Assembly: GCA_011389735.1 (NCBI GenBank)
Contig: JAABTS010000005.1
Location: forward strand, 4,338-68,337
Length of the DNA stretch: 64,000 nt
From: Desulfobacteraceae bacterium
GTDB lineage: Bacteria; Desulfobacterota; Desulfobacteria; Desulfobacterales; JAABTS01
Direction of reading: 5' to 3'
Under the pieces are notes generated by a model, which ran no database searches, had not been told where the DNA came from, and saw only the letters and a list, made by a program, of their open reading frames with translations. Of the stretch, positions 1 to 53,156 are shown piece by piece (within the stretch, counting starts at the first letter, position 1; every line of letters begins with the position of its first letter). The position numbers and the translations under genes are program-made.

Positions 1-1887
1 TTACCGATCACCGTAGTGGTTACCCTTTCGTCCAGTCTTTTCGTGGCGCTGGTAATCAATCCGGCCCTGACTTCCATCTTTGCGAAAGTAAGAATAAAAG
101 CCGGTGGTGCAAATGCGGAATCCATCGCGGCCGCGGGCGAGAAGCCGATCGAGGTGAAAGGCCCCATATTGAAACTGTATACGGCCTTACTCAAAAGCGT
201 GCTGCAATACCGCATCACCTATACATTCATCTCATTTTTAATCCTCGTTCTTTTATTTCAAATCTGGTTCAATGTGGTCGGATACCGGAAACCGGTCGAA
301 TTTTTCCCCAAAATCGATCCGGACAGCGCCTTTATCAATGTGGAGCCGCCCGAAGGCGCGGATCTAAACTATATCGACAATATAATGAAAACCCTGGAAA
401 TGGCCGTATGCGGTTTTGACATCAAGGCGGACGGCGGCGGCGAGGTGTTTCCGGTTGATCATTATCAGGAATCCCACCAAAAAAAGCTTCATACGAAAAA
501 AAACGGAGAAGAATTTTACAGTTCGAGCGATTTGAAAACCATCGAACACGTTTACGCTTCTGTCGAAGAAACCAGCGGCGGCCTGTCGTTCGGACCGAAC
601 AAGCCGAACCATATCGGAATTCAATTTATCGATATGGAAGATCGGAAGCATCCGTCGATCGAGGATCTCGAAGAAATCCGCCGACGGGTCAAACCGGTTC
701 CCGGCGCCCGGATCACGGTCGATGAAGGCGAAGCCGGCCCTCCTACCGGCGCCCCTATCAATATTGAAATATCGGGAGACGATTTCAGCGCTCTGGGCCG
801 CCTGGCAAAACAAATTCGAAGCATTATCGAGGAAATTCCGCATGTGGAAGATGTGCAGGACGATTATATGGAAGGCATACCTTCGATTCTGGTGTCCATC
901 GACAGACAAAAAGCCGCAATGTTCGGGCTGTCGACGAACGCCATCGGGTTCGCCTTGAAAACGGCTTACAACGGCCTTGAAGTATCGACGTATCGGGAAG
1001 AAGACGACGATTACGATATCACGGTCAAATTACCCGAATCCGCCCGCAAGGACACCAGGGTGCTGCATAAATTGATGATTCCCGGAACCGGTGGAATGCT
1101 CGTACCTCTGACCACCCTGGCGCGAATCGAATACTCGGGAAGCGTCGGCGATATCGTGCGGATCAATCATGAACGCGTGGTGACGGTCAAAGCCGGTGTG
1201 GACGAAGACAAACTCCCCGGCCCCGTTGCACGAGCTCAGGCCGAGGCCCTCCTCCATGATTTCCCGCTTCCGCCCGGATACAACATCAAATTCACCGGCG
1301 AAGAGGAACATCAAAAAGAATCCCAGGAATTTTTATCCAGGGCGTTCATGATCGCCATTTTTTTGATTTTCCTGATCCTGGTCACTTTGTTCAATTCGGT
1401 GGCCCAGCCTCTTATCATTCTGACATCGGTCATTTTATCATTGGGAGGCGCTTTTTTGGGATTGACCGTATTGAAAATGCCCTTCGGAATCATTATGTCC
1501 GGGGTCGGAGTGATTTCTCTGGCGGGCGTAGTGGTCAACAACGCAATCGTGCTGATCGATTATACGAATAAACTGCGCGAACGAGGCATGGGGTTGAACG
1601 AAGCGGTCATTTCGGCCGGCGCAACCAGGCTGCGGCCCGTCATGCTCACCGCAATCACGACGATCCTTGGACTTCTGCCCATGGTAACCGGCGTTTCTTA
1701 CGACTTTCATAAAATGTCCCTGTCTCTGGTCAGCAAATCGACCCAATGGTGGCAATCAATGGCCATTGTGGTCATATTCGGCCTTATCGTCGCTACATTC
1801 CTGACACTGGTGGTCGTGCCCATCCTCTATTCCCTTTTGACATCGGCAGGCGAAAAGATGCAGCGGCTGTTTTCCAGAGAGTCATGA
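1..1887 (+). CDS. RND (AcrB/HAE1-type) efflux transporter inner-membrane subunit, C-terminal ~628 aa; 5' end outside window
   Basis: Frame 1 is open from base 1; the track ORF 16..1887 begins at an internal GTG. Large periplasmic segment followed by a C-terminal TM bundle with AcrB-like motifs (VVNNAIVLIDY, RLRPVMLTAITTILGLLPM). Confidence 0.85.
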   Translation, partial: LPITVVVTLSSSLFVALVINPALTSIFAKVRIKAGGANAESIAAAGEKPIEVKGPILKLYTALLKSVLQYRITYTFISFLILVLLFQIWFNVVGYRKPVEFFPKIDPDSAFINVEPPEGADLNYIDNIMKTLEMAVCGFDIKADGGGEVFPVDHYQESHQKKLHTKKNGEEFYSSSDLKTIEHVYASVEETSGGLSFGPNKPNHIGIQFIDMEDRKHPSIEDLEEIRRRVKPVPGARITVDEGEAGPPTGAPINIEISGDDFSALGRLAKQIRSIIEEIPHVEDVQDDYMEGIPSILVSIDRQKAAMFGLSTNAIGFALKTAYNGLEVSTYREEDDDYDITVKLPESARKDTRVLHKLMIPGTGGMLVPLTTLARIEYSGSVGDIVRINHERVVTVKAGVDEDKLPGPVARAQAEALLHDFPLPPGYNIKFTGEEEHQKESQEFLSRAFMIAIFLIFLILVTLFNSVAQPLIILTSVILSLGGAFLGLTVLKMPFGIIMSGVGVISLAGVVVNNAIVLIDYTNKLRERGMGLNEAVISAGATRLRPVMLTAITTILGLLPMVTGVSYDFHKMSLSLVSKSTQWWQSMAIVVIFGLIVATFLTLVVVPILYSLLTSAGEKMQRLFSRES

Positions 1888-2576: not shown

Positions 2577-3719
2577 TTACATCCCCATGAATTTAGCCGC
2601 AATATTTTTCATAATTTCATTGGTTCCGGCGAATATGGACATCACACGGGCGTCCCGGCGGGCCCGGGCGATCGGGTTCGATTCCAGTGTTCCGTAATCG
2701 CCGAGCAGTTCCAGGCATCTGTCGGCGATCCGGTTGGGCAGATCGGTGGCCCAGTATTTCGCCATGGATGTCTCGACGATGATATTCAAGCCTTCGACAT
2801 GGTCTTCAACCAGTTTTTCCATGAAGGTTCTGCCGACTTTGATGTCGGCGCTCATTTCCACCAATGCGAATTGAACCGCCTGCTGCTTGATCAGCGGTTT
2901 CCCGTTGATTTCTATCTTGCGGCAGGATTCCAGGGTATATTCACAGATTCGTTCGGCTGCGGCGACTCCGCCGAGAGCACAAGTCAACCGTTCCTGCTGG
3001 AGTTTTTCCATGAGCATGAGAAACCCGCCGCCCGGCTGTCCGAGCCGGTTAGACGCCGGAATCCGGCAATTGTTGAAAAACAGTTCCGACGTGTCCTGAG
3101 AATGCCAGCCCATTTTATCCAATTTTTTCCCCTTGTCAAATCCCGGCGTCCCGGCGTCGACAATATATAATGAAATGGATTGATGTTTGTTTTCAACCGC
3201 CGGGTCCGTGGCCGCCACAATGACCAGATCGCAAAGAACGCCATTCGATATGAACGTTTTAGAGCCGTTTATGATGATGTCATCGCCGTCGGCGACGCCA
3301 GTGGTTTTCATGCCCGCCAGATCGCTCCCGGCGTCCGGTTCCGTCATGGCCACGGCTGTGACGATGTCTCCGGACACGCATCCCGGCAGGTATTTGCGTT
3401 TCTGTGCTTCGGAACCGAAGGACTGGATGTAGGGGACGATGATGTCGCTGTGGAGGGGCGCAGCCAGACCGGTTATCCATGTATGGCTCATTTCTTCGCT
3501 GACGATCAGCGCATACCGGTAATCTCCGCCCAATCCGCCGTATTCTTGAGGAACCGAGGGACACAAAAACCCTTCCCGGCCCATTTTTCGCCAGATCTCC
3601 CTGGGAACCATTCGTTCGCTTTCCCATTGATCGGCGTAAGGCGTGACTTCCCGGGCCAGAAAGACTTTTAGCCGTTCCCGGAATCGATGATGGTCTTCGG
3701 TGTATTGGATAATGTTCAC
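2577..3719 (-). CDS. acyl-CoA dehydrogenase (LCAD/IVD-like C-terminal motif)
   Basis: 380 aa with ACAD motifs TEPDAGSD, GSKTFISNG and C-terminal IFAGTNEIMKNIAAK. GTG start overlaps the upstream stop (GTGA). Confidence 0.9.
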   Translation of the reverse strand: MNIIQYTEDHHRFRERLKVFLAREVTPYADQWESERMVPREIWRKMGREGFLCPSVPQEYGGLGGDYRYALIVSEEMSHTWITGLAAPLHSDIIVPYIQSFGSEAQKRKYLPGCVSGDIVTAVAMTEPDAGSDLAGMKTTGVADGDDIIINGSKTFISNGVLCDLVIVAATDPAVENKHQSISLYIVDAGTPGFDKGKKLDKMGWHSQDTSELFFNNCRIPASNRLGQPGGGFLMLMEKLQQERLTCALGGVAAAERICEYTLESCRKIEINGKPLIKQQAVQFALVEMSADIKVGRTFMEKLVEDHVEGLNIIVETSMAKYWATDLPNRIADRCLELLGDYGTLESNPIARARRDARVMSIFAGTNEIMKNIAAKFMGM

Positions 3720-4858
3720 GGCCGCCTCCTTTTCGGACCGATCACGGCGCCTGCCACGTCGTCCTTATGGGAATGAACGGTTCCCAGGGTGATCTGGTTC
3801 GTTTTCGCGTCCCGGAAAAACCGTTCCACATCCTGTTCGGTCATATAGCCGTATCCTCCCAGCAACTGGATCGCCTCGTCACAGACCTCGACCGCGGCTT
3901 TGGACGCCGTCATTTTTGCGATGGCGATTTGTGTTGAATCTGCGCGGCCCTTGTCGAACAATGCTGCCGTATGGTAGGCGAACAGCCGCGCCGATTCGAT
4001 TTTAACCGCCATATCGGCGATTTTGTGTCGAGTGATTTGAAAGGCCGACAGTTTCCGCCCGAATTGCTCCCGCTGTTTCACATACGCCAGCGCACGGTCG
4101 AACGCGCCCCTGGCGATTCCGACGGCTTCGGCGGCGGCCCGGATTCGTCTTTCATCGATAACCGCCTTTAGCTGTCGCAGGCCCAGGCCCGGTTCGCCGC
4201 CGATCAGATTTGCGTCCGGAACCCTGACGTTTCGAAATTCAACGTCCGACACAGGAGCCATGTTGCCGCCCAGCCGTTTACCGACATCGCGGACTTCGAC
4301 GCCCTCACGTTCCGAATCGATCAAAATCAGGACAGGTTCGGAACCTGCGGCGCAAAGCACGATAAGGCAACCGGCCTTATCCGCATTGACGACATACCGT
4401 TTATAACCGTTGATCACCCAATCGTTTCCGTCTCGGACCGCCGTGGTTTGAATTGTCGATACCGGGCCGTCCTGAAGCGTTTCAATGTAAGCCGCCGTTG
4501 AAAGCGTTTCGCCTCGGGCCACGGCGCTCAAATATCCGGCTTTCAAATCGCCGTTCGCAAAGCGGGCGAAGCATTCGCAACCGAAATCCGCGGACATCAG
4601 CGCGGATCCCATGCTCGAATCCTTTCGGCAAAATGTTTCCGCCACGATACAGGCGTCGAACAAGCCTGATCCGCCGCCTTCGAAGGATTCGGGAAAAGTG
4701 ATCCCTATAAATCCGAGTTCCGCCGCTTTTTTCCATTGGGCTTCGGGAAATTCTCGCCGCTTTTCCATTTCCAGGATAGCCTCCCTGTCGAATTCTCCAA
4801 CTGCGAATTCTCGGGCCGCTTTTTGAATTTCCTTTTGAGATCTTGAAAATTCAATCAT
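3716..4858 (-). CDS. acyl-CoA dehydrogenase family protein (divergent C-terminus)
   Basis: ACAD-like throughout (FPESFEGGGSG, RFFRDAKTNQITLGT). The track start 4879 is TTG; the ATG at 4858 (MIEFSRSQKE...) sits 1 nt after the thiolase stop and is preferred. Confidence 0.85.
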   Translation of the reverse strand: MIEFSRSQKEIQKAAREFAVGEFDREAILEMEKRREFPEAQWKKAAELGFIGITFPESFEGGGSGLFDACIVAETFCRKDSSMGSALMSADFGCECFARFANGDLKAGYLSAVARGETLSTAAYIETLQDGPVSTIQTTAVRDGNDWVINGYKRYVVNADKAGCLIVLCAAGSEPVLILIDSEREGVEVRDVGKRLGGNMAPVSDVEFRNVRVPDANLIGGEPGLGLRQLKAVIDERRIRAAAEAVGIARGAFDRALAYVKQREQFGRKLSAFQITRHKIADMAVKIESARLFAYHTAALFDKGRADSTQIAIAKMTASKAAVEVCDEAIQLLGGYGYMTEQDVERFFRDAKTNQITLGTVHSHKDDVAGAVIGPKRRRP

Positions 4859-4859
4859 A

Positions 4860-6068
4860 TCATCCCTCGTACCGGCCAATAATGGATATCGCGCAAATAT
4901 TCTGAAATGGAAACCCTCCGAGATTATGAGTCAAACCGTATTTCGGATTTTCCAGTTGACGGTCGCCCGCCCGTTCGTGGAGCTGAAGGTACATTTCATA
5001 GAGCATCCGCAGGCCGGACGCGCCGATGGGATGACCGAAACATTTCAAGCCTCCGTCGGTCTGGCAGGGAACTTGGCCGTCCAGGTCGTACTTACCGTCC
5101 AGCGCCTCTTTCCAGGCTTTTCCGCGTTCGGAAACATGAAGATCCTCGTATGTCACCAGTTCCGTGATCGAAAAACAGTCATGCACTTCCATCATGCTGA
5201 TTTCTTTGACGGGATCGGTGATTCCGGCTTCCTTGTAAGCGAGCGTGCTGCATTTGCTGGTAGTCATGAAATGATCGCCCTCCCATTCGTTAAAAGCCGC
5301 TTCCTCTCCACTGCTCAAAGCGATCTGAAGCGCTTTGACGCTCACGAAATTTTTTTTGCCCATCTTGGCGGCGATTTCCGGAGTAGTGACGATCGCGCAC
5401 GCCGATCCATCGCTCACGCCGCAGCAATCGAACAATCCCAAAGGGTGAGCAATGATCGGCGCTCCTATGACCTGATCTTCGGTCACGGCTTTTCTAAGGT
5501 GCGCCTTGGGATTCAACAACCCGTTGGCGTGGCTTTTGACCGATACGTGAGCTATGGCGCGTTTCAGATCCTTATCCGGGATTTTGTATCTGTCGGCATA
5601 GGCGCCGGCCAGTTGAGCGAACGCGCCGGGAGCGGACAGGTTGGGCCACCACTGCCAGGTGAGCGTCCCCATGCCAGAACCAGGATTGGGCAGACCTCCG
5701 TATCCGGTGTCTTTCAGTTTTTCCACGCCCAGGGCCAGACATATGTCATAAGCGCCGGAAGCCACCGCGTAACAGGCTCCCCGGAACGCCTCCGTGCCAG
5801 TGGCGCAATAGTTTTCGGCCCGGGTTACCGGGATCATGGGGAGCCTCAAAGTCACCGCCAGCGGCATGGCGGTTTTGCCCACATTCACCTCGTCCATGCA
5901 CGTCCCCAGCCAGGCCGCTTCAATGTCCTTCTTTTCGATTCCGGCGTCGGCCAGGCATTCCTCGAAGGCCTCGACCATGAGTTCCTCGGCGCCCACGTCC
6001 CAGCGCTCGCCGAACCTGGTGCATCCCATTCCGATGATGGCGACTTTATCTCGTATTCCTGTGGCCAT
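4860..6068 (-). CDS. SCPx/Ltp-type thiolase (DUF35-associated thiolase family)
   Basis: 402 aa. Nucleophile motif ENYCATGTEAF, C-terminal HDCFSITE and GGLKCFGHPIGASG, typical of non-specific lipid-transfer-type thiolases. Confidence 0.85.
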   Translation of the reverse strand: MATGIRDKVAIIGMGCTRFGERWDVGAEELMVEAFEECLADAGIEKKDIEAAWLGTCMDEVNVGKTAMPLAVTLRLPMIPVTRAENYCATGTEAFRGACYAVASGAYDICLALGVEKLKDTGYGGLPNPGSGMGTLTWQWWPNLSAPGAFAQLAGAYADRYKIPDKDLKRAIAHVSVKSHANGLLNPKAHLRKAVTEDQVIGAPIIAHPLGLFDCCGVSDGSACAIVTTPEIAAKMGKKNFVSVKALQIALSSGEEAAFNEWEGDHFMTTSKCSTLAYKEAGITDPVKEISMMEVHDCFSITELVTYEDLHVSERGKAWKEALDGKYDLDGQVPCQTDGGLKCFGHPIGASGLRMLYEMYLQLHERAGDRQLENPKYGLTHNLGGFPFQNICAISIIGRYEG

Positions 6069-6080
6069 GGATCGTCCCTC

Positions 6081-8810
6081 CTATTTCATTTTGAATAGCT
6101 TTTCAATAAGCCGGGATTTCATCATGTCTCCTTCGATGATGAGTTTGCCCGCCGTAAACGCCTGCATGGGATTGAGTTCGCCTTCCGCCATGCGCACGAA
6201 ATCCGAATCCGTCATTTTGATCGTGCATGCCGGCTTTTCCGCGACGCCCTTGCTGATATCGCATTGTTGATCCCTGACCGCGACCGTCCAGTCGCCGCCT
6301 TTGGCGCCCGATATCTTATACTGAAACACCACATCGACGCCGGCCGCCGCATCGGCTTGAAAAACTTCCGGCATCCGGTCAAATACGGCCTGGGGATCGG
6401 TTTCATCCGATTTTTTCGCCGTATCCGCAGTTTCATCGGCAGGCGGCGGGGTCATCATATCCATCAGCGCCGCGTTCAGATCGTTCAACTCCTTTGCGCC
6501 GGTCAAATCATTGACGGCGTCAAACTGTTCATGGATCGTTTCAAGGGTCGGCGGATGTTCCCCGTGGCCCAACGCCACGGTTTTACCGGTCATGACGGCG
6601 GCCCGGTCGTAATAGCCCATGCCCGCATTGAAAATCGCTCCGGTTTCCCGGCAATCATCGCTGCACAGATAAAGAACCATCGGGGCCACATATTCCGGTT
6701 TCATTTTCTCGAAAATATCCGGAGGCAGGATGTCTTCGGTAAGCCGGGACGCAGCCAGAGGGGCAATGGTGTTCACTTTGATGTCATATTTGGCGCCTTC
6801 CAGCTTAAGCGCGTTCATCATGCCCACCAGCCCCATCTTGGCCGACGAATAATTGGTCTGGCCGAAATTGCCGTACAAACCGGCGGCCGACGTGGTCATG
6901 ACGATCCGGCCGTATCCGTTTTCTTTCATTACCTTGAACGCGGGCCGGGTGACATGGTAGGCGCCGTTCAGATGAACGTCCAGAACAGCACCCCAGTCCG
7001 AGGGTTCCTGTTTCAAGAAGCTTTTGTCGCGCAAAATACCCGCGTTGTTGATGACGATATCGATCCGGCCGAAGGCGTCGAGCGCCGTTTGGACTATTTG
7101 TTCCCCGCCTTCGGGCGTTGCCACGTTGTTGTAATCGGCGACGGCCCGGCCGCCGGCCGTTTTGATTTCCTCGACCACGCGATCCGCGGCCGACTCGGAA
7201 CCCGACCCCGCGCCGTCTCTCGAACCGCCCAGATCGTTGACCACTACTTTTGCGCCGCGGGCCGCCAGTTCCAGAGCGTAAATCCGCCCCAGCCCTCCTC
7301 CCGCGCCGGTGATCACCGCAACCCGGCCGTCAAAGGAAATCTTGTTCATCTCGGCCGCCGCTCCTGGAACAGGCGCCGCTTTCCAGAAATAATTCGTGAA
7401 CCCTCGTTCTTTGTCTTCGGACCGTTTACGGAACATCATGAACACCGGGAGCCCGACCTTGATATCGTCCAGCTTGCAGTCCGTAAAATCGGCCATGAAC
7501 CGTCCGCCATCGTCGAACTGCACCATGCCGTAAATATGCGGAGGATCGACGGACACCGCCAGCAGATCCCCCGTGAAAGTCTTGACCCGGGCGGACCGTT
7601 CCGAAAATTCGAAATCGTCCTGGCTGCGAACGGCTCCGCATTTCGGGTTGACGCAAATATCCATTTTTGGAAATTGCGGCGTCCCGCATTCCCTGCATTT
7701 GCCGCCGACCAGCCCGAGAAGCATTTTACGGTTCCGGTACAGCGTGGTCATGGCCGTTTGAGTGGGCGCTTCGGCCCGGATTCCCATATCGGTTTGGATC
7801 AAGTTCCGGAATTTCAGAAACTTTGCGTAATTATCCGTGGTCTGCTTATGTTCAAGCGATCCGGAAACGCCCCGGCGCGGAGCTAATTCTTTTATCGAAT
7901 CGGTCACCCGGAAACACAGCGCGTTGCATCCCTGACCAAATCCGGCCATGACGATTCGATCTCCGGGGCTGGCCGTTTCCAGAGCGGAGGCCAGCATCAC
8001 CAGGGGATGAGCTGTTCCGGTTTCGCCGCTGACTTCATGCATGTTGTCCACGGCTTTCGCCGGATCGGCGCCCAGCGCTTTGGCGATTTTTTTATGCTCC
8101 GCCTTGAAAAAACAGGGATAAACCAACGTGTCGATATCGGCGATGGCCAGCCCCAGCTTTTGAAGCAGTCCGTTGACGGCTTCGGGAATGATTTTGGAAT
8201 AGCCTTCGTCCCGCGCCCATCGTTCCTCCCATACGTAATCATATGAATGTCCCTTGCCGCGATAATGATCTACAAAATCACGGGAAATCGAGTACGATCC
8301 CAGATATTCCGCGATCACGTTTTCATCGCCCACGGAAAAGGCGGCGGCTCCGTCGCCGTACCACATTTCATAAAACGTCGCCGCCCTGGTTTCTCTCCGG
8401 TCGGCGGCCGCAGCCAGAACATTACGGCGTTCTTTGCTTTTTACGGCTTCCAGAGCCGCAATCAGAGCCGAACTTCCGGCTTTTTGAGACGCCGTGAAAT
8501 CGGACGTCAGGATATGCTCGTCAAGGTTCAACGCCGCCGCTACGACTCCGGAATTCTGCCGGTCTTCGAACGGCATGGTCGTGGACGCCATGTACAGGGC
8601 GTCGAAACGTCGCCTGTCGCACCCGGCGATACAATCCCGGGAGGCTTCGACCGCCATTGTAATGGAATCTTCGTCCCAGTTGCACATGGATCTTTCTCCC
8701 TGGGCGACCATCACGATCGCCGGAGCGAACCAGCCCATGGTTTGATAAATGGACATCCGGTTCAACCTCAACCGGGGAATATATGCGCCATATGATGTTA
8801 TACCTATCAT
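6081..8810 (-). CDS. four-domain fusion: HMG-CoA-synthase/KASIII-like thiolase-fold domain + DUF35 (Zn-ribbon/OB) + MFE-2-type SDR + SCP2 sterol-carrier domain
   Basis: 909 aa. Strong SD (GGAGGA) before the ATG at 8810. Zn ribbon CRECGTPQFPKMDICVNPKCG. SDR motifs TGAGGGLG, NNAG, YSSAK. C-terminal SCP2-like FTAGKLIIEGDMMKSRLIEKLF. Confidence 0.8.
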   Translation of the reverse strand: MIGITSYGAYIPRLRLNRMSIYQTMGWFAPAIVMVAQGERSMCNWDEDSITMAVEASRDCIAGCDRRRFDALYMASTTMPFEDRQNSGVVAAALNLDEHILTSDFTASQKAGSSALIAALEAVKSKERRNVLAAAADRRETRAATFYEMWYGDGAAAFSVGDENVIAEYLGSYSISRDFVDHYRGKGHSYDYVWEERWARDEGYSKIIPEAVNGLLQKLGLAIADIDTLVYPCFFKAEHKKIAKALGADPAKAVDNMHEVSGETGTAHPLVMLASALETASPGDRIVMAGFGQGCNALCFRVTDSIKELAPRRGVSGSLEHKQTTDNYAKFLKFRNLIQTDMGIRAEAPTQTAMTTLYRNRKMLLGLVGGKCRECGTPQFPKMDICVNPKCGAVRSQDDFEFSERSARVKTFTGDLLAVSVDPPHIYGMVQFDDGGRFMADFTDCKLDDIKVGLPVFMMFRKRSEDKERGFTNYFWKAAPVPGAAAEMNKISFDGRVAVITGAGGGLGRIYALELAARGAKVVVNDLGGSRDGAGSGSESAADRVVEEIKTAGGRAVADYNNVATPEGGEQIVQTALDAFGRIDIVINNAGILRDKSFLKQEPSDWGAVLDVHLNGAYHVTRPAFKVMKENGYGRIVMTTSAAGLYGNFGQTNYSSAKMGLVGMMNALKLEGAKYDIKVNTIAPLAASRLTEDILPPDIFEKMKPEYVAPMVLYLCSDDCRETGAIFNAGMGYYDRAAVMTGKTVALGHGEHPPTLETIHEQFDAVNDLTGAKELNDLNAALMDMMTPPPADETADTAKKSDETDPQAVFDRMPEVFQADAAAGVDVVFQYKISGAKGGDWTVAVRDQQCDISKGVAEKPACTIKMTDSDFVRMAEGELNPMQAFTAGKLIIEGDMMKSRLIEKLFKMK

Positions 8811-8856
8811 TTCAGGGTTCCTCCTGGATATTTGTCTTAATATCAGCTTTCAGTTG

Positions 8857-8922
8857 CCAGCTCTCAGTTTTCGTTTTCAGTAGACAATTACAAAGTTTTC
8901 CCCTGCTGATTACTGAAGGCTG
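8857..8922 (-). repeat. repeat family E copy
   Basis: The reverse complement matches 1923-1982, differing only by two substitutions and one extra GAAAAC unit. Confidence 0.8.
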
Positions 8923-8934
8923 ACGGCTGACTAC

Positions 8935-10689
8935 TCATTTAGAAAAAGCGGCGAAGATATCGCCCACCTGAGCGTTCAATTCGAAAAATTCCTTGCCGCC
9001 TTCCATATTGGAAATTTTGGGCAGGTTATCCCGGATATCCTCGGCGGTCGGAAATTTCTTCGCCGAAATCACGGTTCCCGGCCCGGTGACAATGGCGGCC
9101 CTGTTGTAAAATCCCATGCCCGCGTTGTAAATATTCCCGCTCACGGGGCATTGTTCCGAACAGAGATACAATGTCATGGGAGCCACGAATTCGGGTTTCA
9201 TTTTTTGAAACAGATCCGGCGGCATGATGTCTTCGGTCAGCCGGGACGCGGCCAGCGGCGCGATGGTGTTGACCTTGATGTTGTATTTTTTACCTTCTAT
9301 CTTCAACGTGTTCATAAATCCGACCAAAGCCATTTTTGCGGCCGAATAATTGGTCTGGCCGAAATTGCCGTACAGGCCCGCCGCCGATGTGGTCATGACA
9401 ATCCGGCCGTAACCTTTTTCTTTCATCACGGCGAACGCGGGCCGAGTTACATTGTATGCGCCGTTCAAATGCACGTTCAACACGGCGTTCCAGTTTTCCG
9501 GCTCCATTTTGAGAAAGCTCTTATCACGGAGAATACCCGCGTTATTGATCACGATATCCACGGTTCCGAAAGCGTCCAGAGCCGTTTTGACGACATTTTC
9601 CCCGCCCTGGGGATCGGCCACGTTGTCATAGCTCGCCACGGCTTCGCCGCCCAGCGCCTTGATTTCCGAAACCACCTGGTCGGCCGGAGAGCTCGAACCG
9701 CCCCCGGAACCGTCCCTGGCGCCGCCCAGGTCGTTCACCACGACTTTGGCGCCGCGTTTGGCCAGTTCAAGGGCGTATACGCGCCCCAGTCCGGCCCCTG
9801 CGCCGGTGATCACCGCCACGCGGCCGTCGAATCGGATTTTGTCCTCGGGGACATCGCCGTATTCGAATTCGCCCATGTCAATAGTCGTTTCGCCGGTTTC
9901 CGCATTGATAACCCTCCAGACCGCCTTGCCCTCCTCCGTTTTCCAGATCAGGACTTCAATGGGAACTCCAGGATAAAGAGGTTTTGAAAACCGGCAGAAC
10001 ATCCGGCGCGCTTTTTCCGGTTCGCCCGGAATGAGATTCCCCACCAGCGCCCGGCATGCGTACCCGTGCGTACAAAGGCCATGCATGATCGGCTTTTCGA
10101 ATCCGGCCCGGGATGCGAATTCAGGATCCGCATGAAGCGGAAACAGATCGCCGGAAAGCCGGTATAATAAAGGTTGATTGGCAGCGGGCGTTTCCCGGAC
10201 GATAAAATCCGGTTCGCGATCCGGAAATTCGACTTCCCTTTTCGGCGCCGCCGGGCCGCCGAAACCCCCGTCTTTTCGAGCAAAAATCGTCAATACGCTC
10301 GTAAACAGTTTTTTGCCGTTGGAATGATATGTTTCGCTTTCCCCCACCACCAGAGCGCCCTTGTTTTCGCCCTTGTCGTAATAATCACGCAATTTGCCGG
10401 AGGTCGTAAAGGCGCCTTCGGTCGGGATGGGATTGTGGAAAATCAATTCCTGTTCCCCGTGCAGAATCCCGGATAAATCCACATGGGATTTAACCGCGTA
10501 TTGAGAAACGAATTCGATAATCGATGCGATCGAAAAGCTTGGAATCACCTTGAGATTCTTCTCGTAACAATAATCAAGCTCGGAAAATCCCGCGCCCACG
10601 CCCAAAGCATAAAGAATCACATCCCGCCATCCGTAGTCCCTGGAAACGGGCCCGATCGGCTTCCCCAACGCATCCATGTCTAAGGCCAT
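8935..10689 (-). CDS. MaoC-like (R)-specific enoyl-CoA hydratase (double hot-dog) fused to MFE-2-type 3-hydroxyacyl-CoA dehydrogenase (SDR)
   Basis: 584 aa. SD AAGGAGGAAGG before the ATG. N-terminal hot-dog/MaoC pattern (RLSGDLFPLHADPEFA, IMHGLCT). C-terminal SDR (TGAGAGLG, NNAG, YSAAK), about 75% identical by eye to the SDR in 6081..8810. Confidence 0.85.
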   Translation of the reverse strand: MALDMDALGKPIGPVSRDYGWRDVILYALGVGAGFSELDYCYEKNLKVIPSFSIASIIEFVSQYAVKSHVDLSGILHGEQELIFHNPIPTEGAFTTSGKLRDYYDKGENKGALVVGESETYHSNGKKLFTSVLTIFARKDGGFGGPAAPKREVEFPDREPDFIVRETPAANQPLLYRLSGDLFPLHADPEFASRAGFEKPIMHGLCTHGYACRALVGNLIPGEPEKARRMFCRFSKPLYPGVPIEVLIWKTEEGKAVWRVINAETGETTIDMGEFEYGDVPEDKIRFDGRVAVITGAGAGLGRVYALELAKRGAKVVVNDLGGARDGSGGGSSSPADQVVSEIKALGGEAVASYDNVADPQGGENVVKTALDAFGTVDIVINNAGILRDKSFLKMEPENWNAVLNVHLNGAYNVTRPAFAVMKEKGYGRIVMTTSAAGLYGNFGQTNYSAAKMALVGFMNTLKIEGKKYNIKVNTIAPLAASRLTEDIMPPDLFQKMKPEFVAPMTLYLCSEQCPVSGNIYNAGMGFYNRAAIVTGPGTVISAKKFPTAEDIRDNLPKISNMEGGKEFFELNAQVGDIFAAFSK

Positions 10690-10758
10690 GCCTTCCTCCT
10701 TGCCGGAATTGTTTCAGATTCCGTGTAATTAGATTTATGGACAACCCCTGTATTGCGC

Positions 10759-10950
10759 CTGAACGAAAATCCGCAAAATACGGCTCCGAGCGGGTTTGTA
10801 ACTCGCATGTCACAGCCCCGAACGGGCTTATAACCACCGCTCCGAGCGGACTTTTACCCTCTGCTCCGAGCGGGTTTGTAACCCGCATGTCACCCTCGTG
10901 GCCAACGGGGATTGCAAATCCCCCGGAAGCGAGAGGAGGTTTTCGTTCAA
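10759..10950 (+). repeat. repeat family C copy (with internal duplication)
   Basis: Ends are inverted (TGAACGAAAATCC / GGTTTTCGTTCAA). Contains hairpins GCGGGTTTGTAACCCGC (x2) and GGGGATTGCAAATCCCC. Its reverse complement recurs at 31444-31556. Confidence 0.7.
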
Positions 10951-11001
10951 CCAATATAAAGGTTTTCAGATATCAATTTCAAAAGAATCAAGGGAAGAGA
11001 T

Positions 11002-11060
11002 AATACAAGTCGTATCTCTCCAACCGATAACGCCCTGAAATTTAATATCTGAAAGGCTAT
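11002..11060 (+). repeat. REP-A copy (right two-thirds)
   Basis: Matches the REP-A right arm ...CCGATAACGCCCTGAAATTTAATATCTGAAAGGCTAT. Confidence 0.7.
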
Positions 11061-11210
11061 ATAAACTTCCATCAATTATATACCAACCATTGTTTCCATC
11101 ATTTGATGGAGAAAATTATTAAACTGAAAAAACGATCGTGTCAAGAATTTTTAACGCATTTTTTTGAGGTTTTTATAAATTAAATTTCACGAGGCGGCGC
11201 GCCCGGGATT

Positions 11211-11345
11211 GTTGAATGCAAAAATGTTTATGTTGAATGCTAAATGTTAAATGCTAAATGGGAGGACTCACATTCAACATTCAACACCCAACATCCAACA
11301 TCCAACATCCAACATCCAACATTCAGCATTCAGCATTCAACATTC
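11211..11345. repeat. heptamer-periodic imperfect palindrome overlapping the stop codon of the 1810-aa gene
   Basis: Left arm has ATGYTRA-type units (11211-11260), the loop is GGAGGACTCA, and the right arm has about ten CAACATY/CAGCATT units (11271-11345). Confidence 0.8.
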
Positions 11346-14300
11346 CCTTTATTCGAGCGGCCAATCGCCATTCCGAAAATAAAAATCAGAAAGAGGATAC
11401 GGGGGGTTCCCAGGGTTTTGCCGGGCGGAGTTCCCGTGACGGAAATGATAAAGCATTCGCTCGAATCGCCCTCGCCGACCTCCGCAACGCCGTAACCGCT
11501 GCTTTCCAGTTCGCCCACGCCCGCGATAAATGTGGACAGTCCATCCACTTCCACGGATATAACGGTGTTTTTGGCGTCCACAGATCTACCGGCGGTTTCT
11601 TTGGTCCAGACGCCATTGTGGCGCCGAAAAACGTTTAGCCGGCTTATATCTTTGACCTTTGCGGGATCATATTCGATCTGAAGGGTCATCAGGCCCTTGT
11701 AGACGGGTGTTTTTCCGGAGCCGGTTTCTTTGGCCGATACTTCGTAAATATCGCTTGCCGGAGTAATCCCGGCTGGAATATTCGTTGTTGAAGATCCAGC
11801 CCTGCGCTCAAGGGAAAGGTCTGCTTTGGTTTTTTCGATGGACACGGTCAGGTTGGCGCCTCCGGTTGTTTCTATTGCGCCGGATGGGATGTATATTCGA
11901 GTGGGATCGCCGCCGCCGAGGGTCGCCTGGTCGCTGATGTACGGGCTGACGCGATGGCTGTTTAGCGCCGCCGTGTCGGCGTTGAAGGACAGGGTTTCCA
12001 GTTTTGCGGCCGCTTTTTCCCCGTAATGCACGCATACGGTGACGTCCACTCGCTCGTCTCCGGGAGACTTGCGATAGTCAGCTAGGATTCTTCGCCGATT
12101 CGCTCCGAATGTTATGTTTTCAAGGGTTCCGCCGCCGTTTTTCAAGTAAATCCCGCCGGCCGTGGTGGATTCGTTCGGTTCGGTCTGTGTGGCGTCGATT
12201 TCGTTGTCGGTCAAATAGGTGGTGCTGAAAACGCCGATATGGACGATATCGCTGTTATCATGGTCCGGATAGGCTCGGAAGATCAGGGCCGGTTCCGGAT
12301 CGCGGGCGATTATCGCATCCCGGGTTTTGTCGGCGTATCCGGTGGTGAATGGATCGCCTACGGGGAATATTTCCGGGGTGTCGTCGATGCCTGAATCGCT
12401 GTAAAAGATAAGCTGATAAAGGGCGTTTCCGGAAAGCCCCGGCGTTTCATACGACGAAAACGAACCGTCCGCCTCCCTGGTCAGGCGTCCGAAAATGACC
12501 GAACGTTCCCTGAGATCCATGCAGACCACGCCGCTGATGTCCGCCGTCGAAGGATAGCCTCCTCCGGACAGGGCCAGCGCTCCGGAAATTTTGTAGAAAT
12601 CGTCGTCCCAGACCGTATTGAGCGTTTTTTCCTCATACGCTTCGAATGTGATATTGTTTATCTCCGCACGAGGCAGGCCGTAATTCATGAAAATGATTTT
12701 GTATGTTCCCGGAGCGATATTGTCAATCCGGTATTTCGCTGTTTTAAGGTCTTCCGGAGCCGGCATGGTCATGCCTTCGATTCCCTCCAGCATGTCTTTG
12801 TACGGGACGCCTTTTTTCCGGAGCAGAATATATGCTGCCGGGTAGGAGGCTCCGTCTTCCGATGCAAAAGGGATCATGAACCGGGCGGAATCGGGAATAG
12901 CGATAGTTCCGTTCAGGCTAGCAGTGGCTCGCGTCAAGACGAAATCCGCTTTCTCAGTGCAGTTTGTCGCAGGATCGATTTTTCCAGGGCGGACATTGTA
13001 TCTGCGTTCCTCTCCCCAGATCACTTTTTTGCCCCAATCTTCGAACAACCACGGCCTTTCCGCGGCGATCAGATCATAATAGGCCACGTTCGGATCGATT
13101 CCATAAATCGTGTAATAGCCTTTATCGTCTGAAACGCCTGTGGATTCGCCGACTCCGTCATGGGCGTCGGTAGGGACCGCCGACACGTCCACGCCGGGAA
13201 TCGGTTCTCCGTCTGAATCGGTCAGGCGTCCCGTGATAACGGAGCCTTCCCTGAGCCGCACCGTTCCGATATTGATATCTCCGGTCACGCCTTCGGGCGC
13301 TTCGACGCCGGCGATAACGCGGTTGATGTAGTTTTTTGCTCCCTTTTTTTTGCGCCCGTGTTCGGCCTGGATGACTATGATGTACTGGTGTCCAGCAGGC
13401 AGAGCCGTGAGATGAAATTTTCCGGGAGTGTTGTTCGGTTTACGAGAAGACAGTGAGGCGTCGCCGGTTTTCAAATCGGAACCGTCTTCAATGTAACTCG
13501 AAGACCAGGAACCGGGGTCGGTTTGACGATAACCGCTTTCCACCCAGGGAACCGCCTGGCAGGTCACCTTCACTCCGTCCGCCGAGGTCACGGGCTCTCC
13601 GGTCTCCTCGTTCACCAATCTTCCCGTCAGGTTCACCCCCTTTTCAACCGACAGGTTCACTGACGCGTTCGCAGTTTTAACGGAAAAACGGGCGCCCGAC
13701 ACCACATATCGGTCAGTCCAGAATTGGAGCAAATAGTCTCCGCCCGCCACATGATCGAATTCAAATTCATATCGCGATGTGTTGTCAAAATCTCTTTTAA
13801 AGAGGGTCAGAGCGTTGCCGAGAAATTCGTATTCGGTCGTGTAGAGCGCCAGAAAACCCAGCCAATCGAAAGCATCCGTCTGGTCGTTCGCCATTTTCTG
13901 CACTTCCGGCAGGGTAAGCCTTCCCGTCACCTTGTACCCGTTTTCCAGAATGAAATCGCGGTTCGGCATATCCCTGTCCGAGACGACGATGACCTTCGAA
14001 GCCGCGACCCAGTGGCGGTATGTTTGATCGAATACGGACAGGTCCGACAGCTCGGGTTCGATCATTTTGGAAATTCGGAGCGATGTGAACGGAGGGACAA
14101 GCCGATAAGCGCCGGGCGCCAGGCCGTCGATGCGATAGCTTCCCGAGCCGTCGCCGTTATCGGTTATATGGCCGACGAGCGGGTGTGCGGCTTCATCTCC
14201 GCTCATGAACACCATGTCCACCGGAACCGCCATAACGACCTGCCCGGCCAGGTCGCCCGAGATCGTGATCCTTTCGTCATAAAGGTCGCCGGTTTCGTCT

Positions 14301-16762: not shown

Positions 16763-16883
16763 CTTATTTTATTGAAATTCCAGACGCTTGAAGAACGATG
16801 ATCGCATTTCAAGAACCAAAACGGTTTTATGTACCCCCGGCCGATAAAGCACTGACATTTAATTTATGAAAACCCGCAGAGGG

Positions 16884-17678
16884 TCAATATATAGCTGTGT
16901 TTGACTTCATTTCGTCGATCATCCGTTTGATTTCCCGGTTTCTATGCCGTCTCAGGATTTGTTTCCGTTTTTCAAAATCGCGCCGGATTTGTTTGCGCCT
17001 AATTGAGCCGGCTTTTTCCCTGTACTCTTTTTTTTCAGCCGTGAATCGCCGGTGGGCCATTCGCATTTCCCTTAAAGGGGGTCGATAATCCGGGCCTATG
17101 TTTTGGTGCGGCGCTTTTAATTTCGGAGCCCCGAATACGTCTTTTTTAATCGCCGGCCGCTCTTTTACCAGATCTTTTCGGGTGATCGAACTCGTCGATT
17201 TTCCTTTATGCGGCGACAATGCCTTGGGCGCCGTAAAAGTCACTGACGCGGCGGAGGAAGCCGGTTTCTCATAAGAATATTTTCGGTAATCGACGCCGGC
17301 GAGATCCGGTTCCGTTTTGAAGATTCGGATAGCCTGGACTTCGCAGGCCTGAGCGGTTTTCATGTAAGTGATGGCGTAACCGTTCGGTTTGATTATCTGC
17401 TTTACCGCCGGTTCCGGGTCCACGCCCTCCGACATCGAAAACGATACGGGGACGAATTCCAGCCGTTTGTCCATAAATATGGCATAGCCGGTTTTTTTAG
17501 CGAGTATGTCCATCACCCGGCCAAGCGGCGCGTTGTCCGCCGACCCGCTGATCCGGCCCCGATTGATATGGATTTCGCATTCCCCGGAAAACGCGGGGAG
17601 CGCTGGAATAAGCATGACCGCGAAGAATATGGCGCCTGCGAACCGGATATGCAAAGCGAATCTTGAATTTTGCGTCAT
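16884..17678 (-). CDS. secreted protein with STN-like (secretin/TonB short N-terminal) domain and Lys/Arg-rich tail
   Basis: 264 aa. Signal peptide AIFFAVMLIPALPAFSG. STN-like pattern APLGRVMDILAKKTGYAIFMDKRL...NGYAITY. Basic low-complexity C-terminus. Starts 10 nt after the upstream gene's stop. Confidence 0.6.
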   Translation of the reverse strand: MTQNSRFALHIRFAGAIFFAVMLIPALPAFSGECEIHINRGRISGSADNAPLGRVMDILAKKTGYAIFMDKRLEFVPVSFSMSEGVDPEPAVKQIIKPNGYAITYMKTAQACEVQAIRIFKTEPDLAGVDYRKYSYEKPASSAASVTFTAPKALSPHKGKSTSSITRKDLVKERPAIKKDVFGAPKLKAPHQNIGPDYRPPLREMRMAHRRFTAEKKEYREKAGSIRRKQIRRDFEKRKQILRRHRNREIKRMIDEMKSNTAIY

Positions 17679-17688
17679 TTGAAAAAAC

Positions 17689-19503: not shown

Positions 19504-19565
19504 GTCGAAGTCCTTTTTTGCCGGCAAGTAAAACAATGAAGCGGAACAGCCGGTTATGCTTCAAT

Positions 19566-53090: not shown

Positions 53091-53156
53091 TTTTAAAGGA
53101 TGGCAGATCTTAGAAACAAGCCCCTTTTAGTCGAACATTTAGCATGGGAGGGGAAC

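Follow-up and report, generated by a model that had tools for sequence, protein, structure and literature searches.

The 64,000-nucleotide stretch of DNA analysed here (the window), from a bacterium of sulfate-reducer type, carries five minus-strand genes (2577-10689; ORF list with translations), which probably form a catabolic beta-oxidation operon. In this operon, a thiolase and a dehydrogenase would be joined by a catalytically dead HMGS/DUF35 scaffold, with long or 2-methyl-branched acyl-CoAs as the probable substrates. The original prediction had counted six consecutive genes, and the ORF coordinates gave five (Table 1).

Table 1. Predicted features of the operon and its 5' region (positions in the window).
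Feature	Residues	Position (nt)	Strand	Basis
Gene 1, 584 aa, hydratase 2 + MFE-2-type SDR		8935-10689	-	Pfam, solved structures, motifs
MFE-2-type double hot-dog (R)-hydratase 2	1-280	9850-10689	-	
MFE-2-type NAD-dependent 3-hydroxyacyl-CoA dehydrogenase SDR of gene 1	284-570	8980-9840	-	
Gene 2, 909 aa, four-domain fusion		6081-8810	-	Pfam, solved structures, AlphaFold, Foldseek
Dead HMGS/PhlA-like thiolase-fold domain	1-340	7791-8810	-	Pfam, solved structures
DUF35 Zn-ribbon + OB fold	358-481	7368-7739	-	Pfam, solved structures
MFE-2-type SDR of gene 2	488-775	6486-7349	-	Pfam, solved structures
Linker of gene 2, poorly conserved	776-815		-	
SCP2 domain of gene 2	816-909	6084-6365	-	Pfam, solved structures
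Gene 3, 402 aa, SCP2-type thiolase		4860-6068	-	NCBIfam, solved structures, motifs
Gene 4, ACAD A2, 380 aa (ATG 4858) or 387 aa (TTG 4879)		3716-4858 (longest ORF 3716-4879)	-	Pfam
Gene 5, ACAD A1, 380 aa, LCAD-like		2577-3719	-	Pfam, solved structures
Operon 5' region		10690-11150	-	Promoter-like matches, repeat units

The GTGA and 1-nt junctions described before are both present: the two ACAD genes overlap by 4 nt (GTGA, 3716-3719), and the thiolase stop TGA (4862-4860) is separated by 1 nt from the in-frame ATG of the A2 gene at 4858. The spacing is 12 nt between the 909-aa and thiolase genes and 124 nt between the 584-aa and 909-aa genes. Just one other ORF is nearby (10574-10954, 126 aa); it overlaps the first operon gene and had no Pfam match. 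The Pfam scan of the window covered all long non-overlapped ORFs (about 35), setting aside those below 180 aa and short, mostly overlapping ones. Among the ORFs of at least 180 aa there was no match to CoA-ligase, CoA-transferase, ETF or TetR families, which agrees with the earlier statement that the window lacks a ligase, ETF or regulator. The 5' region had two sigma-70-like sites (11144-11115 and 10982-10953), scoring 11/12 and 10/12, a number of sites not above shuffled expectation. It also had four tandem copies of a 24-nt unit with small palindromes (10779-10882), a 20-mer of which was found again elsewhere in the window, and it had no match in Rfam.

The domain inventory originally proposed for all five proteins was confirmed by Pfam and by matches to solved structures. 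In the 909-aa protein, the domain scan suggested as a check detected ACP_syn_III_C (residues 216-297), adh_short (496-684, 140 bits), SCP2 (820-907, 71.7 bits against a cut-off of 21.3) and the two DUF35 families zf-ChsH2 (367-393, 23.3 bits against 23.2) and OB_ChsH2_C (418-460, 30.2 bits against 27.1). The four Zn-ribbon cysteines (372, 375, 386 and 391) are invariant in 120 homologs. Among solved structures, residues 2-338 matched PhlA and archaeal HMGS, residues 358-481 the DUF35 chain 6esq_E (E=1.9e-11), residues 488-779 the MFE-2 dehydrogenases 1gz6, 1zbq and 2et6, and the C-terminus SCP2 and the SCP2-like domain of MFE-2. The SDR shares 48-49% identity with MFE-2 (3R)-hydroxyacyl-CoA dehydrogenases. 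The AlphaFold model was moderate (mean pLDDT 67.5, pTM 0.47), with confident domain cores and low-confidence linkers (325-366 and 775-803); it concerns the domains and does not address their interfaces. Foldseek matched it to MFE-2 dehydrogenase, PhlA and archaeal HMGS.

Residues E82, C114, H238 and N270 of archaeal HMGS (6esq_I) align to T77, Q109, P232 and E263 of the 909-aa protein, and all four residues of the catalytic E-C-H-N tetrad are thus replaced. Judged by these residues, the HMGS-like domain is catalytically dead as an HMGS, and therefore an archaeal-type thiolase/HMGS machine is ruled out for the trio of thiolase, HMGS-like domain and DUF35. The link to thiolase/HMGCS/DUF35 complexes drawn in the original prediction holds as a relationship, but not as a machine of the archaeal type. 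The trio belongs to the bacterial type of active thiolase plus dead HMGS-DUF35 (PMC12960953), and its HMGS-like domain is nearer to PhlA and to the Pseudomonas fluorescens ACAT/HMGS-DUF35 complex than to archaeal HMGS. That complex, characterised in 2026, cleaves acetoacetyl-CoA and makes no HMG-CoA (PMC12960953). The window also codes for Dxr, and therefore isoprenoids would come from the MEP route and HMG-CoA synthase would be unneeded.

The 402-aa protein had Thiolase_N and Thiolase_C_1 domains in Pfam and passed the NCBIfam model PRK06157 with 695 bits (cut-off 403). Its best solved structures were 7yvy and 6esq_A (175 bits), the latter being the thiolase of the archaeal thiolase/HMGS/DUF35 complex, while BbsB gave 137 and PhlC 83 bits. 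All 66 orthologs keep H296-D-C298-F and G-H346-P, and 65 of them have C88, where the remaining row shows a gap. It is by these motifs that SCP2 thiolases are told apart from Ltp2/Sal aldolases (PMC12329534), and the same ones are required in the P. fluorescens complex (PMC12960953). From its full catalytic set, the protein is predicted to be an active SCP2-type, archaeal-ACAT-like thiolase, and it is presumed to be the partner of the dead-HMGS/DUF35 scaffold.

The 584-aa protein was identified by Pfam as MFE-2_hydrat-2_N, MaoC_dehydratas and adh_short, and the best solved structures for its hydratase were 3khp, Drosophila MFE-2 (3oml) and human hydratase 2 (1s9c). In 68 orthologs, the hydratase motif G-D181 with L185-H186 and the SDR motifs TGxxxGxG, N-D320-L-G-G, NNAG and Y448xxxK452 are nearly invariant. 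In both SDRs of the operon an Asp ends beta-2 (N-D-L-G-G), as in NAD-bound MFE-2. A 701-aa relative, 90% identical, runs on into SCP2 exactly where the 584-aa protein ends, and 54 of 67 related loci have SCP2 also on the hydratase-SDR protein, which makes it a complete, permuted MFE-2 in one chain. By this comparison, the lineage of the window has lost the SCP2 of its hydratase-SDR protein. The earlier parallel with peroxisomal MFE-2 and SCPx is therefore kept, but the re-partitioning of their domains is partly specific to this window.

Each of the two ACADs has all three ACAD domains in Pfam. A1 matched best 2pg0 (406 bits) and human long-chain ACAD 8w0t (300 bits); read by eye, its helix G carries Q-Q-E-R-L, and Y-E-G-T is replaced by F-A-G-T. 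Of 61 related loci, 50 have an A1 ortholog (57-72% identity) no more than 9 kb downstream. A1 is LCAD-like and is the conserved dehydrogenase of the operon. In A2, also read by eye, T-L-G stands in place of the Y-E-G that usually supplies the catalytic Glu, but D-E-R-R is found where LCAD/IVD-type enzymes have the base. A2-type genes were found in 23 of 51 related loci, and A2 is classed as an accessory acyl-CoA dehydrogenase.

The four-domain fusion, which the original prediction did not recognise as a described architecture, is not unusual and is highly conserved across Desulfobacterales. It formed more than 120 protein clusters (65-74% identity), and species-representative genomes gave about 580 matches, almost all in Desulfobacterales. 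The possibility was also raised that such a fusion is common and already assigned to a pathway; it is common, but no paper giving it a pathway was found in the literature searched. Gene order in related loci is rigid: TetR, hydratase-SDR(-SCP2), fusion, thiolase and LCAD-like ACAD. Immediately next to the fusion gene, at least 66 of 69 loci have the thiolase gene on the downstream side and 66 of 67 have the hydratase-SDR gene on the upstream side; a TetR gene is upstream in 48 of 62. Subsets of loci add AMP-binding ligases, crotonases and a FadH-like reductase, and about half (26 of 51) have a CoA_transf_3 gene. Its product reached no NCBIfam model at cut-off; it matched best the alpha-methylacyl-CoA racemase of M. 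tuberculosis (221 bits; transferases at most 165) and kept the racemase residues His126 and Asp156. On these matches and two residues the gene is putatively AMACR-like. Distant two-domain relatives (33-49% identity) also adjoin a thiolase, with ACADs, SDRs or hydratase 2 nearby in three of five sampled contexts.

In the proposed route, the acyl-CoA would be formed elsewhere, as by the adjacent AMP-binding ligases of related genomes, and desaturated by A1, with A2 as a second ACAD. The enoyl-CoA would be hydrated by the hydratase-2 domain of the 584-aa protein, oxidised by the two nearly identical NAD-dependent SDRs, one on each large protein, and cleaved as 3-ketoacyl-CoA by the thiolase. DUF35 holds thiolase and HMGS/PhlA together (PMC12329534), and in Sulfolobus it assembles thiolase, (R)-specific SDR and MaoC dehydratase (bioRxiv 10.1101/2024.07.05.601840). 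By analogy with archaeal thiolase/HMGS/DUF35 and PhlABC, the N-terminal half of the 909-aa protein would be a pseudo-enzyme scaffold that binds the thiolase and puts the attached dehydrogenase and the lipid-binding SCP2 beside its active site. Favourable thiolysis would then pull the unfavourable NAD-linked oxidation, and an SDR-SDR dimer could bring in the hydratase protein. The fusion can also mean co-expression and not channeling.

The HMGS-like domain may have another activity, against which its dead tetrad is no proof. A new catalytic or ligand role, such as acyl transfer, acyl-CoA binding or gating, or regulation, with chemistry beyond plain thiolysis, seems very unlikely to us. The domain is conserved like the catalytic SDR (69% against 74% identity among four-domain homologs), and the replacement residues are strongly conserved in that clade: all 120 homologs have T77 and P232, position 109 is Q in 116 and L in 4, and position 263 is E in 108 and D in 12. 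Moreover, its closest solved relatives, PhlA and MucA, sit in complexes with newly evolved acyltransferase chemistry. However, this chemistry of PhlABC and SmaATase is located in the thiolase-like subunit, and an interface-rich scaffold would be conserved equally well. None of 123 two-domain relatives carries the Cys or an E-C-H set, and the former Cys position varies freely in this wider family (L, Q, R, M and others), as expected of a lost site and not of a new one.

A biosynthetic operon running beta-oxidation in reverse, as a counterpart of the archaeal ACP-independent fatty-acid synthase with ACADs working reductively with an electron-bifurcating ETF, is decidedly improbable. Anaerobes do run ACAD/ETF reductively, which would suit it. 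Thiolase, DUF35, (R)-type SDR and MaoC hot-dog protein form a synthase complex in Sulfolobus acidocaldarius (bioRxiv 10.1101/2024.07.05.601840), and the archaeal thiolase/HMGS/DUF35 architecture evolved for condensation (PMC12329534). But both SDRs have the NAD-type Asp and not an NADPH signature, and the operon has LCAD-like ACADs where the archaeal system has an MDR enoyl reductase; for these reasons we favour the catabolic direction. The neighbours in relatives (AMP-ligases, AMACR-like gene, FadH-like reductase, TetR repressor) are catabolic as well, and the characterised bacterial dead-HMGS complex cleaves and does not condense (PMC12960953). It is also unlikely that the operon serves one special substrate class, either alkylsuccinate or 4-methylalkanoyl-CoA from anaerobic alkane degradation with Bbs-like logic, or steroid, hopanoid or isoprenoid side chains. 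The gene set resembles the bbs operon (family-III CoA-transferase-fold gene, ACAD, hydratase, SDR, DUF35/thiolase), some carriers degrade alkanes (Desulfosarcina alkanivorans, Desulfatibacillum and Desulfosudis oleivorans), and a CrtI/carotenoid-isomerase-like flavoprotein occurs together with an FNR-like reductase and a crotonase in about ten loci. Yet the cluster occurs in hundreds of Desulfobacterales genomes, including gutless-worm symbionts and Ca. Magnetomorum, which are not known to degrade hydrocarbons. No glycyl-radical or mutase gene was found among recurrent neighbour families or Pfam-annotated loci (singleton neighbours lie outside this annotation), the BbsB model gave the thiolase 135 bits (cut-off 750), and the family-III protein is nearer to racemases than to BbsEF (221 against 95 bits). 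Steroid side-chain systems typically have SCP2 domains and DUF35, but in the thiolase here the HDCF motif and the nucleophilic Cys are those of a true thiolase, where the side-chain aldolases have YDHF/YDCY (PMC12329534).

The favoured catabolic operon probably acts preferentially on long-chain and/or 2-methyl-branched acyl-CoAs, because an AMACR-like gene is found in those 26 loci and A1 is closest to LCAD-type enzymes. Since the window has no AMACR-like gene, ligase, ETF or TetR, the branched-chain part rests on relatives. Of the bulky, branched or alicyclic acyl-CoA suggested earlier for a channeling complex, bulky or branched remains plausible, whereas the comparative evidence points to 2-methyl-branched and long chains and not to alicyclic ones. 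Beta-oxidation by this operon is probably NAD-dependent and (3R)-specific, as read from its sequences. It would pass through (3R)-hydroxyacyl-CoA intermediates like peroxisomal MFE-2, and the operon would then be a prokaryotic analogue of peroxisomal AMACR/MFE-2/SCPx oxidation.

Five co-directional ORFs on the minus strand make up the operon, not six genes as in the original prediction (coordinates are collected in the table). The tight packing that it described was confirmed: the two ACAD genes, A1 and A2, share a GTGA overlap, and the gene of ACAD A2 has an in-frame ATG at 4858, only 1 nt past the thiolase stop, so its product probably has 380 aa. The gap is 12 nt between the genes of the 909-aa protein (the fusion) and the thiolase, and 124 nt between the first two genes, which encode the 584-aa hydratase-SDR protein and the fusion. 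Every predicted domain was also found by Pfam: neither ACAD lacks a domain, the thiolase belongs to the Thiolase_C_1 type and has thiolase domains only, with no fused SCP2, and all domains of the fusion are at or above the Pfam cut-offs. The reported absence of a ligase, ETF or regulator in the window agrees with our scan, in which no scanned window ORF of at least 180 aa matched ligase, ETF, CoA-transferase or TetR families, and there were no PKS/NRPS genes in the window. An Rfam scan of the operon region gave no matches, and the counts from promoter and terminator scans of the region were not above shuffled expectation. The remaining window genes are housekeeping genes (rho, prfA, prmC, rpsB, pyrH, uppS, cdsA, dxr, rseP, purL) and an envelope cluster. 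The presence of dxr means that isoprenoids are made via the MEP pathway, and a mevalonate role for the operon is therefore unnecessary.

Several other features were observed around the operon. Its 5' region has four tandem 24-nt units, each with a small palindrome (CCGCTC-GAGCGG). The 20-mer GTTACAAACCCGCTCGGAGC from these repeats occurs at two further window sites with 2-3 mismatches, where chance expectation is none; it looks like a dispersed REP-like repeat, with no Rfam match. At the stop of the gene for a 1810-aa protein there is an overlapping tandem repeat with the 7-nt unit ACATYCA; it has an inverted partner with 31-nt arms (81% complementary), and the two may form a terminator-like hairpin. 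The 1810-aa protein, with CarboxypepD_reg repeats, belongs to the unrelated envelope cluster upstream of the operon, together with a 264-aa ORF without Pfam match, a FecR-domain protein of 615 aa and a TPR/beta-barrel-porin-like protein of 504 aa. At 52-56 kb the GC content drops from about 50% elsewhere to 39-41%, and a 555-aa protein encoded there combines DUF4041 with T5orf172/MUG113 (GIY-YIG-like) domains; this may be a mobile or defence-related insertion. The ORF at the window edge matches the AcrB/RND transporter model only C-terminally (positions 614-1020 of 1021), and the window start probably truncates it.

Features of the operon and of its surroundings in the window
Feature	Position	Strand	Content
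Whole operon	2577-10689	minus	five ORFs
Hydratase-SDR, 584 aa	8935-10689	minus	MFE-2_hydrat-2_N, MaoC, adh_short
Fusion, 909 aa	6081-8810	minus	KAS-III/HMGS-like segment, zf-ChsH2, OB_ChsH2_C, adh_short, SCP2
Thiolase, 402 aa	4860-6068	minus	Thiolase_C_1 type
ACAD A2, 387 aa as longest ORF	3716-4879	minus	complete ACAD
ACAD A1, 380 aa	2577-3719	minus	complete ACAD
SDR modules	6586-6885, 9083-9382		close paralogs
End of the 584-aa gene	8811-8937		relative runs on into linker and SCP2
24-nt tandem units	10779-10882		4 units with palindrome
Further sites of the 20-mer	31514-31533, 52548-52567		2-3 mismatches
ACATYCA tandem repeat	11230-11343		7-nt unit
Inverted partner of ACATYCA repeat	11230-11260		31-nt arms
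Envelope cluster	11330-21080		
555-aa protein	53100-54767		DUF4041, T5orf172/MUG113
Window-edge ORF	16-1887		AcrB/RND, C-terminal match

The N-terminal 340 residues of the fusion had PhlA as the best solved match (124 bits), and archaeal HMG-CoA synthase 6esq_I scored 110 bits (E=1.7e-30). The HMGS/PhlA match spans residues 2-338 and is followed on the same chain by the DUF35 match at residues 358-481, with chain 6esq_E of the archaeal complex (E=1.9e-11). The AlphaFold model of the fusion was moderate (pLDDT 67.5) and was used for domain and linker boundaries only. It is reported that archaeal HMGS requires E82, C114, H238 and N270, and that the mutants make no HMG-CoA (PMC12960953). In the phmmer alignment with 6esq_I, this tetrad is replaced by T77, Q109, P232 and E263. 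Among 120 full-length homologs T77 and P232 were invariant, position 109 was Q (116) or L (4), position 263 was E (108) or D (12), and none carried an HMGS catalytic residue at any position of the tetrad. The HMGS Cys or the E-C-H set was likewise found in none of 123 full-length representatives of the wider HMGS-like/DUF35 family. Curated models scored below their cut-offs, with 139 against 353 bits for NCBIfam HMG_CoA_syn_Arc and 200 against 244 for PRK04262. The mean identity of the HMGS-like domain among the 120 homologs was 69%, vs 74% for the catalytic SDR, and all four Cys of the zinc-ribbon were invariant. Because the tetrad is lost yet this identity is kept, the HMGS-like domain is, on this reading of the alignments, a conserved pseudo-enzyme.

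The thiolase is predicted to be active and of the SCP2 type, with an intact catalytic set: H296-D-C298-F and G-H346-P were present in 66/66 orthologs and C88 in 65/66. Its best solved match was 7yvy, and the second best was the thiolase of the archaeal complex (175 bits).

The SDR of the fusion matched solved structures of yeast, rat, human and fly MFE-2 dehydrogenases, with 313-315 bits and 48-49% identity to the rat and human enzymes (1gz6/1zbq). TGxxxGxG, N-D-L-G-G, NNAG and YxxxK are kept in both SDR domains of the operon, and both have the post-beta-2 Asp, a NAD-type signature that is the same in MFE-2. They are predicted to be MFE-2-type 3-hydroxyacyl-CoA dehydrogenases with a NAD-type cofactor site and (3R) specificity. 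The two modules share 74% identity in the window, for protein as well as for DNA. SDR-SDR identity within genomes was 66-91% with a mean of 75%, vs 72% between genomes (loci L002-L081), which may reflect occasional gene conversion in some lineages. For the window's own modules, a recent event of this kind was unsupported, since the DNA repeat is 74% identical.

The hydratase of the 584-aa protein matched MFE-2 hydratase 2 (3oml and 1s9c, about 150 bits), and in its motif D181 was invariant, H186 was kept in 67/68 orthologs and the Asn is a Phe. The C-terminus of the fusion matched SCP2 and the SCP2-like domain of MFE-2 in solved structures. In 54 of 67 related loci, those of homologs of the fusion, the hydratase-SDR protein also ends in SCP2 and has about 702 aa, which is a complete, permuted MFE-2. 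The window's protein stops exactly where a 90%-identical relative of 701 aa continues into a linker and SCP2, so the window lineage lost SCP2 there. ACAD A1 was closest to 2pg0 and human long-chain ACAD. Reading of alignments together with textbook knowledge placed Q-Q-E-R-L of A1 at the LCAD/IVD-type catalytic-base position; in A2 the Y-E-G glutamate is also absent, with D-E-R-R at that place.

The four-domain fusion had not been recognised as a described architecture; the searches find a common, Desulfobacterales-wide protein. A word-indexed search gave more than 120 clusters of about 910 aa with 65-74% identity and the same Pfam set, from sources including Desulfosarcina widdelii, D. alkanivorans, Ca. 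Magnetomorum, Desulfosudaceae and Desulfosalsimonadaceae. With one genome per species there were at least 581 confirmed matches, and the best 80 of these were essentially all from Desulfobacterales/Thermodesulfobacteriota; these counts rule out that the fusion is rare. The homologs are named in databases only as 'SDR family oxidoreductase', 'hypothetical', or, by JGI, 'HMG-CoA synthase/short-chain dehydrogenase'. HMMER with the N-terminal 483 residues placed the four-domain proteins in a single tight clade within a larger two-domain HMGS-like/DUF35 family of 620 clusters at 50% identity (E<1e-30), with members of about 470-490 aa; almost all of the best-scoring 150 of the 620 clusters had 450-500 aa. 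A rare three-domain form has the SDR and no SCP2. Fusions of DUF35 to thiolase-superfamily, SDR, SCP2 and hot-dog domains were tabulated in a structural-genomics paper of 2010 (PMC2954200). Our literature search, which included Desulfobacteraceae proteogenomic papers but few subscription journals, found no description of this four-domain protein, its operon or its function. The fusion and its operon are common in nature, functionally uncharacterised, and informative on a large orphan class.

Gene order around the fusion was conserved when ORFs were called in 80 loci and clustered, and the result was verified with tblastn. The fusion gene was followed immediately by the thiolase gene in at least 66 of 69 loci and preceded immediately by the hydratase-SDR gene in 66/67. 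A TetR regulator was upstream in 48/62 loci, an ortholog of ACAD A1 downstream in 50/61, ACAD A2 in 23/51 and a CoA_transf_3 gene in 26/51. The best solved relatives of the CoA_transf_3 protein were MCR and Far, alpha-methylacyl-CoA racemases of M. tuberculosis (221 and 202 bits), with transferases at no more than 165 bits; His126 (AGHD) and Asp156 of MCR are conserved, and no curated model reached its cut-off. This gene is called AMACR-like below. Subsets of loci had additional genes for AMP-binding ligases, a long ACAD, crotonases and a FadH/BaiCD-like flavoenzyme. The context of the two-domain relatives was sampled in five distant members (33-60% identity): a thiolase-sized or Pfam-confirmed thiolase gene was next in 5/5, ACADs, SDRs or hydratase 2 were near in 3/5, and some had ligases and TetR/MarR regulators.

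In about 10 loci (L011, L018, L019, L042, L043, L047, L057, L067, L070, L075), a trio lies downstream of ACAD A1. It encodes a CrtI/carotenoid-isomerase-like FAD protein (about 500 aa), an FNR-like reductase of the FAD/NAD/2Fe-2S type (about 385 aa) and a crotonase (about 270 aa), and it may process unsaturated or isoprenoid acyl chains.

Among known systems the closest is PfACAT/HMGS-DUF35 of P. fluorescens, and all of its defining features that can be tested on sequence are found here: HMGS-like domain and DUF35 on one chain, loss of the E-C-H-N tetrad, an adjoining thiolase with catalytic Cys, HDxF and GHx, and no PKS/NRPS neighbours. The N-terminal 483 aa of the fusion belong to the large HMGS-like/DUF35 family of this complex. 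That complex carries out thiolytic cleavage and makes no HMG-CoA (PMC12960953). Unlike it, the window fusion runs on into an MFE-2-type dehydrogenase and SCP2, and its operon, of fixed make-up, also encodes hydratase-2/SDR and ACADs. The proposed link with the archaeal thiolase/HMGS/DUF35 complex stood for the three folds, including a C4 zinc-ribbon and OB-fold DUF35, and failed for the chemistry, because all four HMGS catalytic residues are replaced; an active machine of the archaeal type was ruled out by the absent tetrad. The archaeal HMGS is active and its complex anabolic towards mevalonate, while here the HMGS is dead, its DUF35 is fused to it and the context is catabolic. PhlABC/SmaATase is also a three-part thiolase-like/HMGS-like/DUF35 set and PhlA likewise has no tetrad, but PhlC matched the window thiolase with 83 bits only, and PhlC and MucB are CoA-independent acyltransferases without HDxF (PMC12960953). 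Such an acyltransferase was ruled out by the HDCF motif that is kept here and by the lack of PKS/NRPS context. BbsAB and Ltp2-ChsH2/Sal-Shy resemble the operon in pairing DUF35 with an SCP2-type thiolase fold in a beta-oxidation-like operon, and in ChsH2 and Shy one chain carries both DUF35 and a MaoC hydratase. None of them has an HMGS-like domain. The motifs kept in the window thiolase define SCP2-type thiolases, whereas the retro-aldolases Ltp2 and Sal show YDHF or YDCY, with Gly or another residue at the position of the nucleophilic Cys (PMC12329534); an aldolase of this type was ruled out by the conserved C88 and HDCF. BbsAB was ruled out because the BbsB equivalog model NF053628 gave 135 bits against its cut-off of 750, and because BbsA is stand-alone while the window DUF35 is fused to the HMGS-like domain. 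The fatty-acid synthase of Sulfolobus acidocaldarius (KT/DUF35 + ACR + MaoC-HCD) carries out three reactions whose enzymes are also fused or clustered in the operon. But it consists of separate polypeptides, is NADPH-dependent and biosynthetic, and has an MDR enoyl reductase and no HMGS-like domain, whereas the operon has NAD-type SDRs, ACADs and catabolic neighbours.

The parallel with peroxisomal MFE-2 and SCPx held for the parts and not for the strict architecture. The SDR, the double hot-dog hydratase 2 with catalytic Asp/His, the SCP2 domains and the HDCF thiolase all have counterparts in the peroxisomal set, and the AMACR-like gene of about half of the related loci may correspond to AMACR. 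The order is hydratase-SDR(-SCP2) here and SDR-hydratase-SCP2 in peroxisomal MFE-2; the window splits SCP2 onto the other protein, and its relatives have hydratase-SDR-SCP2. SCPx carries SCP2 at the thiolase C-terminus, in contrast to the window thiolase, and the HDCF motif is common to both. Two SDR copies are found as in yeast MFE-2, but on two chains. ACADs replace the acyl-CoA oxidases of the peroxisomal route, and the dead-HMGS/DUF35 scaffold is extra, with no eukaryotic counterpart. The operon could work like the peroxisomal set despite this mismatch.

From its genes, the operon is predicted to encode a full D-specific (MFE-2)-type beta-oxidation cycle, in which an active SCP2-type thiolase would act with a dead HMGS/DUF35 fused to SCP2 and to one of two dehydrogenase copies. 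The operon most likely runs in the catabolic direction: the SDR sites are NAD-type, ACADs are present instead of enoyl reductases, catabolic genes are its neighbours in relatives, and the lone characterised dead-HMGS complex shows thiolytic-only behaviour (PMC12960953). Long and/or 2-methyl-branched chains may be the preferred substrates, judging from the AMACR-like gene of relatives (absent from the window itself), from the LCAD-like ACAD and the SCP2 domains, and from the analogy with pristanate oxidation in peroxisomes.

In the archaeal complex, DUF35 and the HMGS fold hold the thiolase, and the CoA-binding site is common to them (PMC12960953, PMC12329534); the Sulfolobus DUF35 protein assembles thiolase, (R)-specific SDR and MaoC dehydratase (bioRxiv 10.1101/2024.07.05.601840). 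By analogy with these solved homologous complexes, DUF35 and the HMGS fold would clamp the thiolase here too. The pseudo-HMGS/DUF35 half would thus be its anchor, the tethered dehydrogenase would pass 3-ketoacyl-CoA straight to thiolysis, and SCP2 would hold the hydrophobic tail of the acyl chain. SDRs of MFE-2 are dimers, and because the window's SDRs are 74% identical, the hydratase protein could be recruited via an SDR heterodimer. A more speculative reading, less likely than not, is that the dead HMGS/DUF35 organises a whole (3R)-specific beta-oxidation metabolon around itself, a prokaryotic equivalent of AMACR/MFE-2/SCPx on a pseudo-enzyme scaffold.

A study of 2026 in Nat Commun counted about 1,000 bacterial HMGS-ACAT-DUF35 loci without secondary-metabolism context, and from one Pseudomonas example regarded the dead-HMGS class as an evolutionary intermediate without defined pathway (PMC12960953). 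The Desulfobacterales fusion is a natural 'Rosetta stone' for this class, as it joins dead HMGS/DUF35 covalently to a 3-hydroxyacyl-CoA dehydrogenase and SCP2, and the operon around it, of rigid gene order, encodes hydratase 2, a thiolase predicted to be active, ACADs and, in many loci, an AMACR-like protein. The orphan class gains a testable role, that of a scaffold for the last beta-oxidation steps, and the peroxisome-type D-specific route would, judging from the genes, have a widespread bacterial form. If the metabolon reading is true, it would give a physiological role to the approximately 1,000 orphan loci, and the recycling of a pseudo-enzyme as assembly platform for primary catabolism would be a clean example of enzyme evolution. 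The carriers are complete-oxidising sulfate reducers, to which a large part of carbon turnover in marine sediments is attributed, and the same reading would make the operon a main Desulfobacterales route for mineralising branched/isoprenoid and long-chain lipids in anoxic marine sediments.
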